A stretch of DNA of 45,341 bases, taken from positions 1 through 45,341 of the forward strand of contig JABCSY010000022.1 in NCBI GenBank assembly GCA_018238625.1, written 5' to 3'. The notes below the pieces were generated by a model. It had not been told where the DNA came from. It saw nothing but the letters and a program-made list of their open reading frames with translations, and made no database searches. A program made the translations under genes and the position numbers. The DNA comes from Promethearchaeota archaeon. Lineage in GTDB: Archaea; Asgardarchaeota; Lokiarchaeia; Sigyniarchaeales; SOKP01. Positions 984-41,775 of this stretch are shown here, one piece after another. How positions within the stretch are numbered: the stretch's first letter is position 1; each line of letters opens with the position of its first letter.

Positions 984-2384
984 TTAATTTAGAGATTTAG
1001 AATATTTTCTCGTTAGTGAGTTAGTCAACTCTCTTAATTTTTTAGAAATTTTTAATTTAAAAACATGATTTTCATCTAAAGTTTTGTATTCGCCTGGTAA
1101 TTTTTTAATATTCTTTAGATAATACTGCTGAATTTCCATTATTTGAGGTATCTTGCAAATTAAGTTTCCTTTTTCCATTATCGGAATTAATAGAGCTTCT
1201 GAGTTCGTTGGCGCTTCGTCGTTGTCTAACACTAAGATGTCTTCTTTGAAAACCCCTCGTTCGTTATAAATCCTGTAAATTTGCTTCTTTCCGGGGTAAG
1301 TTAGTTTATCTTCGCTTATTTTTATTTTAGGTAGACCATTATATTCTATTAGTTTATACACACCTGAAATAGTTGGGTCGTCCCTAGATGTTGATAACTC
1401 GGTCCCAACGCCAAATGCATCGATAGGGGCGTTGTTATCAATAATGTGTTTAATCTTGTACTCGTTTAAATCAGAACTTGCAACGATTATAACTTCTTTA
1501 CAACCATTATCGTCTAAAATCTTGCGAACTTTTTTAGCGTGTTCAATGAGATCACCTGAGTCTATTCTTACCCCTTTTATGTTGTTTTCGTATTTACACG
1601 CGCTCTTTGCTGCTTTTTCGGTGTTGTAAGTGTCAATTAAAAGTATTGATTTCTTACCGTAAATTTTATAAAATAAATCGAAACTCTCTTTCTCATCGTC
1701 AAATCGTTGGACAAAACTATGGGCCATTGTACCGCTAGAATTAATATCCAACTCGAGGTCGGCAACAACGTTACTCGAACCGTTAAAACCCGCAATATAG
1801 CTAGCTCTTGCCGCGTAAACACCCGCAAGAGGGCTGTGAGACCTTCTGGTACCGAATTCAAGAAGAACCTTATCTAGAGCAATAGATTTTATTCGAGACG
1901 CTTTAGAGGCCACAATAGTTTGGTAATTAATGGTGTTCAATAAATACGTTTCTGCTAATTGAGCGTGAAACATAGGCCCTTGGACTCTCATAATGGGCTC
2001 TTGAGGAAAGAAAAAATTCCCTTCTTTCATTGCCCACACATCTAATTTAAACTTGAAGTTAGGCAAATAGTCGTCAAAAAAGCTTGAATCGATGTTTTTA
2101 AAAACTTCTTTTTTTCTCAAGAAATTAATTGTCTTTTCAGTAAATCTAGCGTTTTGTAAGTAGTAAATCGCTTGTTCTAAACCGGCGAAAATTAAGTAAT
2201 TGCGATTTTTAGGATATTTTCTGATAAAAAGATCAAAAACTGCGATATCGTTTTCTTCATTTCTACCGTTCTCCAAATTATCTTGATAGTAAGCTGCCCC
2301 CATAGTTAATTGATAAAAATCCGTAGCAAGGATAAAGTTAATATCGTTAATAAAACCAGACTTTGGCTCTCTCATTATTTTCAT
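984..2384 (-). CDS. pncB: Nicotinate phosphoribosyltransferase
   Basis: TDFYQLTM, EFGTRR, GTMAHS, LIDTY, GVRIDSGD, DAFGVGT and GVYKL motifs. Confidence 0.93.
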   Translation of the reverse strand: MKIMREPKSGFINDINFILATDFYQLTMGAAYYQDNLENGRNEENDIAVFDLFIRKYPKNRNYLIFAGLEQAIYYLQNARFTEKTINFLRKKEVFKNIDSSFFDDYLPNFKFKLDVWAMKEGNFFFPQEPIMRVQGPMFHAQLAETYLLNTINYQTIVASKASRIKSIALDKVLLEFGTRRSHSPLAGVYAARASYIAGFNGSSNVVADLELDINSSGTMAHSFVQRFDDEKESFDLFYKIYGKKSILLIDTYNTEKAAKSACKYENNIKGVRIDSGDLIEHAKKVRKILDDNGCKEVIIVASSDLNEYKIKHIIDNNAPIDAFGVGTELSTSRDDPTISGVYKLIEYNGLPKIKISEDKLTYPGKKQIYRIYNERGVFKEDILVLDNDEAPTNSEALLIPIMEKGNLICKIPQIMEIQQYYLKNIKKLPGEYKTLDENHVFKLKISKKLRELTNSLTRKYSKSLN

Positions 2385-25668: not shown

Positions 25669-26307
25669 TTAAAAATTTTCAAATTTTTTTTTTAATTTAA
25701 AATAATCATCGATAGTATTAATGTTATAAATTAATTCGATCCGTTCACTAATTAGAATCGCTTGATCAAGTTCTTGTTGATCAATAGCATCACCATTAAT
25801 AACATTAATCCCTAATGGAATTAGTTTTTTCTGATCATTTTCTGAGGTAAATACAATTGTAGGTGTTAATCCATGTTGATTAAATAATCTCATATCAGCC
25901 ATAACTGTGAGTGCTGGTTTATTTAATATAAAATATATATTAATAATTTCATCTAATATCTCTGGTTTAATTAATGGAATATCTGCTACAACTGTCATTG
26001 TAATTCCAAGTTTGAGTTTTTTAATTATGAATTTTAAATCAGAATGATAACCGGCTCCAGGAGTTTCAATTAATTCAATTGGCAAATTCAACCTCTTAAT
26101 AATCGATTTCGTATGAGGCGTAAATGATGAAACGGCAATAATCAGCTTATTGATCCTTTTAGACGCCAATATAGCATCAATAACATGTTCGATTAGATAT
26201 TTATCTCCAAGTGGAAGCAACAATTTTTCTTGATATTCTATTTCTATTTTGGTAAAATCAAATCGGGAACTTTTTCCTCCTGCCATAATTATTGCTGCAA
26301 TTTGCAT
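25669..26307 (-). CDS. cobY: Adenosylcobinamide-phosphate guanylyltransferase (archaeal CobY)
   Basis: MAGGKSSR, EK.LL, TPGAGY..DL, ADIP and NINT.DD; in the cob cluster. Confidence 0.85.
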   Translation of the reverse strand: MQIAAIIMAGGKSSRFDFTKIEIEYQEKLLLPLGDKYLIEHVIDAILASKRINKLIIAVSSFTPHTKSIIKRLNLPIELIETPGAGYHSDLKFIIKKLKLGITMTVVADIPLIKPEILDEIINIYFILNKPALTVMADMRLFNQHGLTPTIVFTSENDQKKLIPLGINVINGDAIDQQELDQAILISERIELIYNINTIDDYFKLKKKFENF

Positions 26308-33826: not shown

Positions 33827-33918
33827 ATTAAAAGTTTTATGAAAATCTTAATTAGAAATACTCAATTTTTGCATATCAATCTAAAAATATTTCATGATAT
33901 GATTTTGGTTTCTTCTAA

Positions 33919-34101
33919 GATTTTATCCCTCCAACCAGATTCTTAGCAACAGCTGGTGCTTCTGATAAAACAATAACTGGAAAACATCTACTCTCGAAAA
34001 AAAGAAAAAACTTTGTAACTATTACTTTTGAAGGAGGAAATACATTTCCAAAAGAAGTTAGATGGAAAACTTATGATTTTCTGAAAGAAAATCTATTCTA
34101 G
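33919..34101 (+). pseudogene. Probable C-terminal remnant of an alpha/beta hydrolase gene
   Basis: Startless frame DFIPPTRFLATAGASDK...FEGGNTFPKEVRWKTYDFLKENLF*, preceded by in-frame stops; resembles hydrolase C-termini (..P..L..AG..D / F.GGH.FP...AY.FL). Confidence 0.4.
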
Positions 34102-34109
34102 AATCTTTA

Positions 34110-34451
34110 CTACAATCCTGCCTTTTCTCTAATTTTCTTACAGTCAATTTTGTCATCTTTTACAGGATTATTGATAAAGAAATCGAGTTCGCCACTACCG
34201 CGATATTTGTGTCCAAGAACTAATGCACTTTCTCCGAATAGATGCCATAATTTTTTTAATTCTTCCTTTGTCTGTTTGGGTTTTCGATGATGTTCTATTG
34301 ATGAACGAACAATACAACGTGCATATTCAATAGCCAAATCAACTGTTGGAAAACCTTCGATTACCATGTCATGTTCAGGATCAAAATGAAAATTGTCAAT
34401 AATTAAAACGGAATAGGTTTTCCTTTCGGTCATTACAAAATCAATTTCCAA
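34110..34451 (-). CDS. Hypothetical protein
   Basis: 113-aa ORF directly downstream of cbiZ; no family recognised. Confidence 0.6.
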   Translation of the reverse strand: MEIDFVMTERKTYSVLIIDNFHFDPEHDMVIEGFPTVDLAIEYARCIVRSSIEHHRKPKQTKEELKKLWHLFGESALVLGHKYRGSGELDFFINNPVKDDKIDCKKIREKAGL

Positions 34452-34464
34452 TTAATTTTTTTCA

Positions 34465-35586
34465 CTAAATTTTCATTGAAATCATTTTTTTTCTTATCAA
34501 GACGGAGATAAATGTTTCGAAATTTGATAAAATATCTTTGATATAACTGTTCTTATTTAGATTTAAATTTAACATCTCTTTATTTACATCAAAAGATTGT
34601 GCTAATGTAGAAAATAACATTTCAATTTCTTCATTTATTTCTGTTTTTCCTAATAATCCCCATCGGTACTCATCTAGAAGGTGAATTATTAAAGAAGAAA
34701 CAGTAACCAGTTTATTATTTTTGTCTATGGATTGAAAATGATAGATAAAATCTAATTTAGTCATTGAGTCTTGATTAAAAACATTTTTATACTTTTGCCA
34801 TAGACTTTCTTCCGTTATTCCATATCTCTCGAATCTTTTTAAAATACTATGCTGGCTATCAGGATCGCAATTTTCTTGTTTATATAATGCTTCTTTTACA
34901 GCTTTTTTTACGGATAACCCTATTAATTCACCTAACTTCGAATGTTTTCCAGTATTTGTTAAATATATAGGTGAATCCAAGTTACTAATAATAATATTAC
35001 CATCTGTGCCTGTCCCAGTTGCTAAATCGTTTGAATATTTGCTTCCTATCATTAGTTCTTGCAAAGCAGCAGTTTTTGCTTCAGTACAAATAACGAGTGC
35101 TTGAGTTAAGGCTTCAGGGGGTAATTTTACATCGATTTCTAAAATAGTATTAATAGTTCCAAATTTTTTCTTTTTTATATTTAATAAATCTCTTTCATCA
35201 AATGAAGCGGGATCACCAGCTCGGCCCCCATTAATGCCTACACCCGCAGTAACAATAGCAGTCGTTGTAATACCTTTATATGACTCTTCTTTTATCGATA
35301 CATTCTCTATGGAGGCTGCTGTACTAATGCCTGAAGTAAATTCTGGCTTTAACCCCAACTTCTCGGCGATTTTCTTTAAATGTTCTTTATAAGTTGTTTC
35401 CTTAAAAACATAAGTCCTTTCTGGCCCTTGTGTTCCATCATAATTATAAACATAATTCAATTTTTCACTATAAGCGCCGTTTAATGGTGAAGTGCTAAGT
35501 ACATTTCTTTTTCCTTTGAATTTTATAACAAGAGCTTTCTGTTCTCTATAGATTACATCACCCAACGAAGTTACAAAGATTTTCAT
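34465..35586 (-). CDS. cbiZ: Adenosylcobinamide amidohydrolase
   Basis: VLSTSPLNG, G.STAA, VTAGV..N, GTINT, TEAKTAAL, ATGTGTD and GKHSKLGELIG. Confidence 0.9.
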   Translation of the reverse strand: MKIFVTSLGDVIYREQKALVIKFKGKRNVLSTSPLNGAYSEKLNYVYNYDGTQGPERTYVFKETTYKEHLKKIAEKLGLKPEFTSGISTAASIENVSIKEESYKGITTTAIVTAGVGINGGRAGDPASFDERDLLNIKKKKFGTINTILEIDVKLPPEALTQALVICTEAKTAALQELMIGSKYSNDLATGTGTDGNIIISNLDSPIYLTNTGKHSKLGELIGLSVKKAVKEALYKQENCDPDSQHSILKRFERYGITEESLWQKYKNVFNQDSMTKLDFIYHFQSIDKNNKLVTVSSLIIHLLDEYRWGLLGKTEINEEIEMLFSTLAQSFDVNKEMLNLNLNKNSYIKDILSNFETFISVLIRKKMISMKI

Positions 35587-39364: not shown

Positions 39365-39420
39365 AATATGAATTAAAAAATTTCACATTTTAAATAATTT
39401 CAATGTTTAAATTTAATATT

Positions 39421-39454
39421 ATTATAACATAAGTTTTATTATAACATAAGTTTT
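39421..39454. repeat. Perfect 17-bp tandem duplication in the divergent promoter region
   Basis: attataacataagtttt occurs twice. Confidence 0.85.
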
Positions 39455-39608
39455 CTCTCGTTCTACAACACTTACATAATTTATAAAAAAGTTAAAAAAA
39501 AATACCAATCTCTTTAATATTTTTTCAAATACTTGAGAATTAAAATTTAATTAGGATTCTAACAATAAATTAATTACAATAAAAAATTTTAAATAAAATT
39601 ATATCAAA

Positions 39609-40904
39609 ATGATAAGAATGAAAAAAGTAGCTATTATTGGAGTTGGAATTACTCCTTTTAAAGCAAGATATATGGATAAAACGCATTTTGAACTCGCTTA
39701 TGACGCGACTAAGCTCTCTTTGGAAGACGCAAACAAAAATGGGGCTGAAATAACTCATAAAGATTTAGAATCTACTGTTTACGGTATTTATAACGAACTA
39801 TTCGAACGACAATTCATGCCGGACATTTTTATAAACTCGTATATCGGAATGAACAACAAACCAGGGACTCGAATCGCTTCGGGGGGTGCTACAGGTGGAT
39901 ACACAGTGAGAATGGCTTATGCGGAAGTTGCCTCTGGTCTATCAGATCTATGCCTTTGTCTTGGCGTAGAGAAATGCAACGATTGTTATGACGAAAAAAC
40001 GGGTACGACAACACCAGAGGTTCTGAATGCAATCGCTTATTCTGCCGATATGACTTATGAATATCCAATGGGCATGATGGCGGCCAGCTCTTATGTTAGC
40101 ATGGTAAATGCGCACTTTGAAGAATTCGGTAATCCAACCGAAGAACAAATGGCTTACGTGAGCGTAAAGAATCATGGGAACGCGATAAATAATCCCAAAG
40201 CCCAATCTCCGATGAAATTGACTACAGAAGACGTATTAAATTCCAGGATAATTTGTTATCCATTTAAAATGTTGGATTGCTGTCTTTATTCCGAAGCTTC
40301 GGCAGCCTTAATATTAGCTAGCGAAGAAAAAGTAAGGGAACTAAAAATTGAAAATCCAATTTGGATAACTGGCGTAGGCGCAGCTAATACGGATTGTTTT
40401 ATCGGTAATCGAGAAGAAATTGGGCGGTTGTATTCAAATATTTACGCAGCAAAAGCAGCTTACAAGATGGCCGGATTGGACTATAATAAGATTAAAAACC
40501 AAATAGACCTAGCAGAGCTTCACGATGCCTTCTCTGGACATTACTTGTCATAAAGACAATTTGCCAGTCAAGAAGTCATTAGCTACGAAGAACTCGGTTT
40601 TGTGTCTTTTGGAGAAGGAGGTTCATGGATTGAAAAAACATTTGAAAAACCTGGAGAAGGGCCTTGGTTAGAGGGAGAACTCCCGTGCTGTCCTTCAGGT
40701 GGCTTAATAGGTTGTGGCCATGCTGTTGGAGCTACAGGAATAATGAGTACTGGAGAAGCTGCTCTTCAAATAAGAGGGGAAGCCGGTAAACATCAAGTAA
40801 CTATTGAAAAAGGACGAGCTATATCTCATTCTATTGGAGGTCCTGGTGCTGCCTATGCTGCGGTGATTGTAATGGCAAACGAGGAGGGGTTGAAAAAACC
40901 ATGA
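39609..40904 (+). CDS. Thiolase-family protein (SCP2-thiolase/Ltp-like), intron-containing: join(39609..40539,40570..40904), 421 aa (alternative start 39618)
   Basis: KVAIIGVGITPF, GVEK, VKNHGNA..NPKAQ, DCC..SE..AALIL, ELHDAFSG|QE.ISYEELGF, SGGL...GHAVGATG and HSIGG. The two track ORFs (39609-40553 and 40602-40904) are in the same frame, and the stop overlaps the next ATG (ATGA). Confidence 0.88.
40540..40569 (+). other. Candidate 30-nt bulge-helix-bulge (tRNA-type) intron in mRNA
   Basis: Central helix CUGG(40534-37)/CCAG(40564-67); 3-nt bulges ACA(40538-40) and UCA(40568-70); exon-exon stem GAUG-C-CUUCU/AGAAG-U-CAUU; intron hairpin UUGUC-AUAAA-GACAA containing the in-frame UAA. Removal gives GGA CAA GAA. 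Confidence 0.85.
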
Positions 40905-41401
40905 GCGAAAAATTTCAATCACATGAAATTAGGGATAAAATTCTAATAGAATATAAGTATACTATGGGCGGGCAATCAAAATTCTTCATAGAATTAATGA
41001 ATAATAAGAAGATATTAGGAACAAAATGTAAAAAGTGCGGGAAAGTTTGGATGCCTCCAAGAATTAACTGCTCAGAGTGCTACGAAGATACCGATTGGAT
41101 TGAGCTCCCCCACGCAGGTACGATTCAAATTAGTACGATAGTATGGTATGGGGCTGCTGAATTTATTCAAAATGTTCCCTACGGTTGTGCTTTTATTAAA
41201 TTAGATGAAGCAGATACAGCTTTGTTTCAAGGTGTATTTTCAGAAAATTTGGTTCCTTCAAAAATTAAGAAAGGACAACGAGTTAAAGCAGTGTTTAAAA
41301 AGAGGGAGGACCGAGAAGGTAGAATGACAGATTTCTTCTTCGTTCCTGAAGATGAGTGGGAAAGATGGATTAATAAACCAGAATTTGAAGGTGGTGAGTA
41401 A
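40901..41401 (+). CDS. DUF35 Zn-ribbon/OB-fold acyl-CoA-binding protein
   Basis: GTKCKKCGKVWMPPRINCSEC, GTI..STIV, PY..AFIKLD and G.RVKAVF; coupled to the thiolase. Confidence 0.9.
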   Translation: MSEKFQSHEIRDKILIEYKYTMGGQSKFFIELMNNKKILGTKCKKCGKVWMPPRINCSECYEDTDWIELPHAGTIQISTIVWYGAAEFIQNVPYGCAFIKLDEADTALFQGVFSENLVPSKIKKGQRVKAVFKKREDREGRMTDFFFVPEDEWERWINKPEFEGGE

Positions 41402-41403
41402 AA

Positions 41404-41775
41404 TTGGGTATTGCAAGTGAAAGTTTAAGTAAAATTGTTGAAAATATGAGCGGGAACGCAAAAGTTGAAGCTGTTTTTTTTACTAACATTAGTGGAAAAG
41501 AAGTTGATTGGGATATGATTTTCCAATTTAACTTGGATAACGAGGATTCTTTTTATCTTAAGGTAAAAGGAAGAAAAGCTGAACTGATTAACGGAACTGC
41601 TTCAGATCCTAACATAATTATGACGGGAGATAATAACGCAATTGTAAAAATCTGCAATGGCAAGGGAGATTTCACTCATGCGATTAGTAGAGAACAAATA
41701 AAAGTTACAAAAGGAAAAATCATTGAAGTAATACGCCTAACTCGAGCAATAACCCTTGTTTTAAAAACTAAATAG
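41404..41775 (+). CDS. SCP2 sterol/lipid-binding domain protein
   Basis: FQFNL....FYLKVKG.KAE..GT..DP.I.M and G..D...A....IKV.KG pattern; TTG start 2 bp after DUF35. Confidence 0.75.
   Translation: MGIASESLSKIVENMSGNAKVEAVFFTNISGKEVDWDMIFQFNLDNEDSFYLKVKGRKAELINGTASDPNIIMTGDNNAIVKICNGKGDFTHAISREQIKVTKGKIIEVIRLTRAITLVLKTK

Follow-up and report, generated by a model that had tools for sequence, protein, structure and literature searches.

A 30-nt insert with an in-frame TAA splits the gene of a thiolase-fold protein at positions 40540-40569 of contig JABCSY010000022.1 from Promethearchaeota archaeon (assembly GCA_018238625.1; the whole 45,341-nt stretch that was analyzed is referred to here as the window). 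This insert is very probably (probability about 0.85) a real mRNA intron, of the kind excised by the tRNA-splicing endonuclease EndA at motifs of the bulge-helix-bulge (BHB) form, with the exons joined by the ligase RtcB; cleavage, ligation and the enzymes responsible we infer from sequence. Beyond this gene, it appears likely that the protein genes of Lokiarchaeial (Asgard) archaea harbor a small and changing set of BHB mini-introns of about 30 nt, serviced by the tRNA-splicing machinery, with up to four per gene and exon pieces down to 16 nt, gained and precisely lost between close relatives, and located in catalytic motifs and even in the ligase gene. Such introns look sparse per genome.

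The first open reading frame (ORF) of the gene (39609-40553, 314 aa) ends in ELHDAFSGHYLS at the TAA of the insert, and after the insert the same frame picks up as RQFASQEVISYEELGF, running to a TGA at 40902-40904 that overlaps the next ATG (40901). Deletion of 40540-40569 gives a single 421-aa ORF. The original prediction, made from the letters of the window alone, had described this split, the resumption of the frame with QEVISYEELGF up to the overlapping stop and the restored 421-aa ORF, all of which were confirmed. It had also placed the DNA in a probable Asgard host, and this was borne out by the record titles of 80 orthologous loci, which name Promethearchaeota and related taxa, almost all being Promethearchaeota or Promethearchaeia (the current NCBI names for the Lokiarchaeial Asgard phylum). 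The features of the locus, in window coordinates, are:

39609-40539, + strand: exon 1 of the thiolase-fold gene (Thiolase_N, PF00108, E 2.1e-07), ending ELHDAFSG plus the first base of a Gln codon
40524-40533, + strand: 5' strand of the exon-exon helix h (GAUGCCUUCU), with 9/10 positions pairing with 40571-40580 and synonymous sites invariant in 8/8 insert holders
40534-40537, + strand: 5' strand of the central 4-bp helix H (CUGG)
40538-40540, + strand: 5' bulge ACA, with U41·G63 as its sole closing pair towards the intron and the cut predicted after 40539
40540-40569, + strand: predicted 30-nt intron, missing from 79/87 distinct orthologues, removal of which gives the 421-aa ORF
40545-40559, + strand: intron hairpin UUGUC-AUAAA-GACAA, part of helix h'
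40551-40553, + strand: in-frame TAA within the predicted intron
40564-40567, + strand: 3' strand of the central helix H (CCAG)
40568-40570, + strand: 3' bulge UCA, predicted cut after 40569; 40569 is T in orthologue L021, which fixes the register
40570-40904, + strand: exon 2 (Thiolase_C_1, PF22691, E 1.5e-15), QEVISYEELGF... to the TGA at 40902-40904
40571-40580, + strand: 3' strand of the exon-exon helix h (AGAAGUCAUU); U80 is C in 5/8 holders, turning G·U into G-C
40901-41401, + strand: DUF35/ChsH2-type gene (zinc ribbon plus OB fold), its start overlapping the thiolase-fold stop; insert-free in 95 orthologous loci
41404-41775, + strand: SCP2-like gene (21.2 bits against a Pfam cut-off of 21.3); insert-free in 79 loci

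Both thiolase domains scored over the Pfam cut-offs (PF00108 in the N part and PF22691 in the C part, residues 268-420 of the read-through protein), and the best PDB matches of the read-through protein were archaeal thiolases (2e-39 to 2e-34), with a 10-residue gap opposite the insert in 3/3 PDB alignments shown (7yvy, 6esq, 4yzo). The earlier assignment to a thiolase gene of lipid metabolism is thus retained at the level of the fold. Its catalytic part did not stand, since in the alignments to 7yvy and 6esq the thiolase nucleophilic Cys (...AACASG...) lies opposite a Gly in ...ASGGATGG... (window 39870-39900, residues ~88-98); for this reason "thiolase-fold protein" appears to be the safe name, and a status as proven thiolase seems unsupported. 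Together with the DUF35 and SCP2-like neighbors, this suggests that the protein may be Ltp2-like or SCP2-thiolase-like, not a true thiolase. The own genome holds 13 matches in all to the thiolase-fold query, the others at no more than ~35% identity.

The comparison of orthologues that the original prediction had proposed covered 100 genes, corresponding to 87 distinct sequences. Eight of these carry the insert at 40540-40569 (own, L004, L005, L021, L034, L068, L072 and L076, from separately deposited assemblies), with 0-3 substitutions across the 30 nt, and 79 are without it. All 16 insert-less rows inspected, among the 20 orthologues shown, read FSGQEV (TTY TCN/AGY GGN CAR GAR GT), which is the predicted spliced product. 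The same comparison makes it vanishingly improbable that the 30 nt are an assembly or binning artefact and not part of the organism's DNA: the genome is indeed a bin of 201 contigs (4.29 Mb, 97.9% complete) with 7.59% contamination, but the insert recurs in those eight distinct sequences, and contigs from DNA runs hold up to 0.93 of the sampled words of the stretch.

In the closest relative, genome G008 (94-96% DNA identity), the insert is precisely missing, and over ~19.6 kb of the window compared with G008 it is the only indel of at least 9 nt inside an aligned block within coding sequence. On an IQ-TREE phylogeny of 22 orthologues, insert presence needs four changes (bootstrap range 4-4), the well-supported branches alone forcing at least two, and the approximately unbiased (AU) test rejects the holders as one clade (p = 1.2e-62, for a group named after the first tree was seen). 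The simplest history would be one gain followed by about three precise losses; spread of the insert by recombination transfer is an alternative to such a history.

Selection on the gene was estimated between insert holders. In nine holder pairs the 3' exon gave dN/dS values of 0.034-0.110 at dS 0.24-1.39, and the 5' exon behaved alike. The relaxed selection on the 3' exon that would have spoken for a pseudogene is therefore not seen, and the gene is under strong purifying selection in the holders and not drifting as a pseudogene. This bears on the possibility that the insert is a non-spliced mini-insertion, of miniature inverted-repeat transposable element (MITE) type or produced by slippage, in a gene already inactivated and decaying. 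Such a history would account for the stop that interrupts the frame and for the nucleophilic Cys that is already gone, in a genome with 13 query matches and many other broken ORFs, but it is hard to reconcile with dN/dS of 0.03-0.11 on both exons at dS up to saturation, and with the lack of any further stop or frameshift in 8/8 holders. A mobile element is further disfavored by the insert being single-copy: a blastn-short search of the 4.29-Mb genome returned no second copy, the next-best match being 16 nt. Finally, the sole RtcB match of genome G015 and the aIF2-gamma gene of at least 12 genomes hold the same kind of insert (see below), so that decay is very improbable.

Synonymous sites around the junction were also compared. 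Variation among the eight holders affects 74% of third codon positions (311/422), but only one of nine in the helix-forming codons DAFSG/QEVI (slash, splice junction), the change of U80 to C making G24·U80 a G-C pair. Eight of those nine third positions vary in six intron-less sisters of the same clade. In sliding windows of nine codons the junction window, with a value of 1, is the gene minimum, and values of 1 or less occur in only 4/414 windows.

RNA motif and predicted cut sites

In the pre-mRNA, the codons for D-A-F-S in the 5' exon would pair with those for E-V-I in the 3' exon to form helix h, and exon CUGG would pair with intron CCAG to form the 4-bp helix H, which would place the two cut sites four base pairs apart on opposite strands. 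The base pairs, bulges and hairpin that had been listed in the original prediction are all present in the sequence. Specifically, the exon helix comprises G24-U80, A25-U79, U26-A78, G27-C77, C29-G75, U30-A74, U31-A73, C32-G72 and U33-A71 with a single mismatch, C28xU76 (numbers are 405xx), and CUGG 40534-40537 pairs with CCAG 40564-40567 at 4/4 positions in all eight insert holders; the background frequency of a central helix paired 4/4 is, per register, 1.7-1.9% of positions in the thiolase-fold gene. Across a 65-nt alignment, 98.8% of cells pair, as compared with 25-60% with slid partners. RNAfold of 40515-40590 gave -20.0 kcal/mol (z = -2.84, equaled by 0/200 shuffles), and its minimum-energy fold contains the exon helix with nine pairs, the 4-bp helix and, on the 3' side, a bulge of 3 nt. 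The four versions folded (own, L034, L068 and L021) had z values of -2.7 to -3.9, with 0-3 of 200 shuffles folding as well, and in the minimum-energy folds of 4/4 the UCA at 40568-40570 is a 3-nt bulge.

The two splice sites differ in this respect. On the 5' side, C39-G63 and A40-U62 are paired in the own minimum-energy fold, leaving a 1-nt bulge; in L034, L068 and L021, which have C in place of U62, a 7x4 internal loop before the 5-bp hairpin contains the 5' cut site, and the 5' ACA becomes a 3-nt bulge only when U41·G63 forms. The motif had been called canonical, which applies to the 3' splice site and not to the 5' site; as modeled, it is strict at the former, relaxed at the latter and not fully canonical. 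According to the available text of PMC5829648, the strict motif consists of two 3-nt bulges and a 4-bp helix, and only (alpha-beta)2 and epsilon2 enzymes cut the relaxed hBH, HBh' and BHL forms. The modeled 5' side fits this relaxed hBH/BHL class.

BHB cuts fall after the second base of each bulge. A two-subunit, alpha-beta-like EndA would hence cut after C40539 and C40569, and RtcB would ligate the exons to GGA C/AA GAA, giving a 421-aa thiolase-fold protein with the junction peptide HDAFSGQEVISYEELGF; translation of unspliced RNA would stop at the TAA, four codons into the intron. The spliced junction encodes FSGQEV, as intron-less orthologues do. Since C39 equals C69, several cut registers tie in the own sequence and lead to the same protein, and the tie is broken by L021: its insert ends ...CCAGTT/AAG, registers -1 to -3 as well as plain read-through place a TAA at the conserved Gln codon, and CAA is obtained only from the BHB register (or +1).

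Further inserts in the thiolase-fold gene, RtcB and aIF2-gamma

The suggestion that such introns might be more widespread in the lineage was supported by seven further positions of the thiolase-fold gene that carry 28-34-nt inserts in other genomes, and by inserts in RtcB and aIF2-gamma. In all 16 insert-holding orthologues of the thiolase-fold gene, removal at cuts of BHB geometry gave a full-length frame, of 414-421 aa in the 13 that are complete, and restored the three cut by contig ends or gene extraction to 229, 399 and 411 aa. The eight positions together account for 24 insert instances, 19 of them exactly 30 nt; L021 (G004:C318) holds the most per copy, with four, and L020 (G023:C1) and L022 (G022:C5) have paired inserts with a 16-nt exon piece between them. 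Helix H is paired 4/4 at the called register in 19/24 instances and at 6/8 positions, against a background of 1.7-1.9% per register (11-12% for the best of seven registers) and 2-8/24 in slid-partner controls.

These sister inserts, together with L021, also bear on translational recoding, in which the ribosome would read through the TAA or hop over the 30 nt in the manner of T4 gene 60. The length of the insert, its single in-frame stop and the hairpin after the Gly codon are as recoding would have them. However, read-through would add 10 residues beside HDAF, where 3/3 homologues shown have none, and in L021 it would run into another TAA where the conserved Gln codon should be. Sister inserts of 28, 29, 31 and 34 nt shift the frame. 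Programmed bypass of the T4 gene 60 type needs matching take-off and landing codons, and for a take-off at GGA there is no landing codon before CAA (the 3' end reads ...GCC AGT CAA, with no GGN). Recoding also leaves unexplained the frozen synonymous sites that pair across both exons, and it is accordingly held to be highly unlikely.

RtcB was surveyed in the 42 genomes of the genus and found in 41, the own copy being intact (G000:C24:7978-9285, E 4e-167, no stops). In G001 (L119, G001:C295:15000-17000) and G015 (L120, G015:C2:10700-12600), both on the minus strand, the gene is interrupted at residue 47/48; the insert, of 29 nt, has the order TTGG at^a (^, cut), a 9-pair hairpin and CCAA aa^a or ag^a, with H paired 4/4 and h' 9/9. 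Removal of this insert gives GGVGY/DINCG, equal to the own intact gene. The split gene is the sole RtcB match in both genomes, of which G015 is 100% complete; if the intron reading is true, ligase expression in G001 and G015 would need pre-existing ligase in the cell.

A third interrupted gene encodes an aIF2-gamma-type GTPase. On own contig C165 (forward 258-286, gene on the minus strand; L127), a 29-nt insert splits GHVDHG/KTT, and the own genome also has an uninterrupted copy of this type (C106:3365-4927; L126); because bin contamination is 7.59%, the two copies may come from two strains. The gene was found in 39/42 genomes of the genus and is split at the P-loop residue in about 13. At 12/12 readable junctions (own bin plus 11 genomes; L140-L151) there is a 29-30-nt insert with H paired 4/4 and the product GHVDHGKTTLVK, the 13th split stretch stopping at a contig end. 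Here covariation was detected, with compensatory changes in the hairpin of the insert: pair 28-36 is UA in 8, CG in 2 and AU in 1, and the covariation score was reached by 0/500 shuffles. In the alignment, 89.8% of cells pair, as against 28-57% when slid.

These parallel inserts are informative on another explanation of the thiolase-fold locus, namely a split gene, with polypeptides of 314 aa and about 100 aa (from a GTG at 40602) assembling into the enzyme. The GTG-start ORF exists (40602-40904), and the 3' part is under purifying selection, as a separate subunit would show. Nevertheless, the 11 codons between the insert and the GTG (QEVISYEELGF) are kept as protein in the holders shown, despite synonymous changes that include an AGC/TCA switch of Ser, and the position of the insert faces a gap within a single unbroken match to solved thiolases, in the C-terminal domain. 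Inserts that cut GHVDHG/KTT and GGVGY/DINCG, or leave a 16-nt exon piece, cannot delimit separate polypeptides. A split gene is thus very improbable.

Other genes were free of inserts: cbf5 had no inserts or stops in 42/42 genomes of the genus, the thermosome had none in about 113 matches in the genus, and none were found in the DUF35 (95 loci) and SCP2 (79 loci) neighbors. The interrupted genes are cut in or beside conserved motifs, HDAF in the thiolase-fold gene, DINCG in RtcB and the P-loop in aIF2-gamma, which we take to be active-site motifs, DINCG presumably being the RtcB metal-site motif. This placement could be a real bias or a detection bias.

Splicing machinery, genome-wide scans and surrounding sequence

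The own genome contains, on contigs C58 and C7, two ORFs with EndA domains (PF01974 plus PF02778), one of 200 and one of 201 aa. The 200-aa protein, which keeps Tyr, His and Lys, is closest to 3p1z_B (8e-35), the catalytic subunit of the heterotetramer from A. pernix, and the 201-aa protein is closest to M. jannaschii EndA (4e-23), with an Asp opposite the His of the latter. By homology the pair would be alpha/beta-like, consistent with the (alpha-beta)2 type. That type is reported for Asgard archaea in the accessible parts of PMC5829648 and of a preprint (10.64898/2026.10.13.758758), and Asgard genomes are described as mostly having two EndA paralogues in the sections available of the same preprint and of PMC11291895. 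Of only 28 tRNAs called by ARAGORN in the near-complete own genome, 17 have introns of 5-107 nt in the anticodon loop, a load that fits heavy use of the EndA/RtcB pathway; many own tRNA genes were probably missed by ARAGORN because of introns at other positions. Its calls include some odd ones, a tRNA-Pyl (cta) and two "Stop" tRNAs (tta).

A paralogue-based search of the own genome returned 61 split ORF pairs, most of which differ by one in-frame stop (extra length 0). The thiolase-fold gene was the only clean 30-nt case, and a 29-nt case lies on C165. As a separate observation, 32 paralogue-supported ORF pairs of the own genome are parted by a single in-frame stop (TAA 13, TGA 12, TAG 7; for example C112:32594, C119:31969, C26:4793 and C32:3539), mostly in small repeated families resembling decaying copies; TGA stands opposite a paralogue Cys twice, which could reflect selenocysteine. 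Searches for exon-exon junctions were uninformative on splicing: the 23-letter thiolase-fold junction had no matches in 179 loci or in metagenome contigs, and a 26-letter degenerate aIF2-gamma junction had none in the 179 loci and matched five metagenome contigs (1.5-12 kb). One of the matches, L184 on a 10.7-kb contig, encodes a 403-aa aIF2-gamma that lacks the N-terminal extension, and appears to be an uninterrupted genomic gene from a different archaeon.

Several points weigh against the reading of the thiolase-fold insert as a BHB intron or against the wider population. The genome-wide scan for BHB motifs in split genes suggested by the original prediction gave no excess: in the own genome, scans combining BHB geometry with ORF fusion did not exceed controls with the 3' exon shifted by ±1/±2, examples being 69 and 64 candidates at the true register compared with 48-70 in shifted controls. 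Either such introns must be few in the own genome or the scan fails to see them, and the scans are silent on intron number because gene boundaries swamp the signal. In four RNA-labelled runs (shares 0.05-0.18, contigs at 90% likeness, two runs probably DNA) there was no contig over 40481-40742 and there were no joints, which is no evidence either way. The paired columns at the thiolase-fold site are invariant, with four distinct rows among the holders and none of the compensatory changes that had been looked for; since these columns never vary, the structural evidence at this site is conservation and not covariation. A clean 3-nt bulge at the 5' cut site occurs in no minimum-energy fold of the four versions. 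Moreover, the cut rule and the alpha/beta assignment were taken from literature and homology, and the registers of the 24 instances were chosen among BHB-fitting candidates, a bias towards the motif for which the background and slid-partner test serves as control.

Rfam and tRNA scans of the window gave no matches. A scan candidate at 1647-1678 (minus strand) was a false positive, lying inside an intact 466-aa ORF of another frame. Elsewhere in the window, the intergenic region upstream of the thiolase-fold gene (39394-39511) measures 116 nt versus 16 nt in G008, and an insert of 46 nt is present in G008 just past window position 25675, where a minus-strand ORF ends. A larger difference is at 33899-34485, where ~585 nt stand against 57 nt in G008; this piece includes a 113-aa ORF (34113-34451, minus strand), parts of it recur on other contigs of relatives (G020:C238 and G008:C109), and it may be a small mobile element.

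Comparison with known systems

In the literature searched, with most subscription journals and supplementary files outside, no account of BHB introns in protein-coding genes of Asgard archaea was found, and an earlier report is possible. The part available of a 2023 review (PMC10485636) counts only two archaeal genes, cbf5 and HVO_1309, for which splicing by the tRNA endonuclease is known, and expects more. If the present reading is true, a metabolic gene, a translation factor and an RNA ligase would be added to the spliced archaeal genes, and the closest prokaryotic relatives of eukaryotes would have an exon-intron architecture based on the endonuclease/ligase pathway and not on the spliceosome. 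Gene callers would take such genes for truncated ones or for pseudogenes, and Asgard metabolic reconstructions would therefore under-count intact genes. As codons have to supply the exon half of the motif, the inserts would also offer a system in which ideas on how introns become established in coding sequence can be tested. They would further allow a test of splicing as control, an RtcB gene that needs RtcB being a built-in feedback loop.

The splicing of HAC1/XBP1 (Ire1 with RtcB or Trl1) is a non-spliceosomal removal of a very short mRNA intron in which joining by a tRNA ligase restores or changes the frame. It differs in its endonuclease, Ire1, in its twin stem-loops, which are not BHB motifs, and in being a regulated stress response; no evidence for such regulation of the thiolase-fold insert was found here. 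A role of RtcB in XBP-1 splicing is described in the accessible portion of PMC8718801. The BHB introns of archaeal tRNA and rRNA, including those of the intron-rich Asgard tRNA genes, share the motif definition, the enzymes and a similar size range with the present inserts. They differ in substrate, which here is mRNA, and the Asgard papers cited treat, in the parts available, tRNA genes only. HVO_1309 of Haloferax volcanii is alike in that an mRNA is cut by the archaeal splicing endonuclease, the spliced form being the major product, but it is a single case in a euryarchaeon with a homodimeric (alpha2) EndA, as described in the available text of PMC10485636.

The closest known case is the cbf5 intron of Crenarchaeota (Desulfurococcales and Sulfolobales), and the thiolase-fold intron, as predicted, would belong to the same kind. 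From what is available of PMC2738675 and PMC10485636, the cbf5 intron has the same motif class and hosts with (alpha-beta)2 EndA, sits at the codon of a catalytic residue, and shows lineage-specific presence with precise secondary loss. The two differ in gene and phylum, and cbf5 splicing was shown by experiment, whereas that of the thiolase-fold gene is deduced. Compared with cbf5, the thiolase-fold gene has predicted introns at eight positions, as many as four of them in one copy, and an exon piece of 16 nt. What would be new is thus the Asgard host, the set of genes (thiolase-fold, aIF2-gamma and RtcB), the presence of several introns per gene and their turnover among close relatives.

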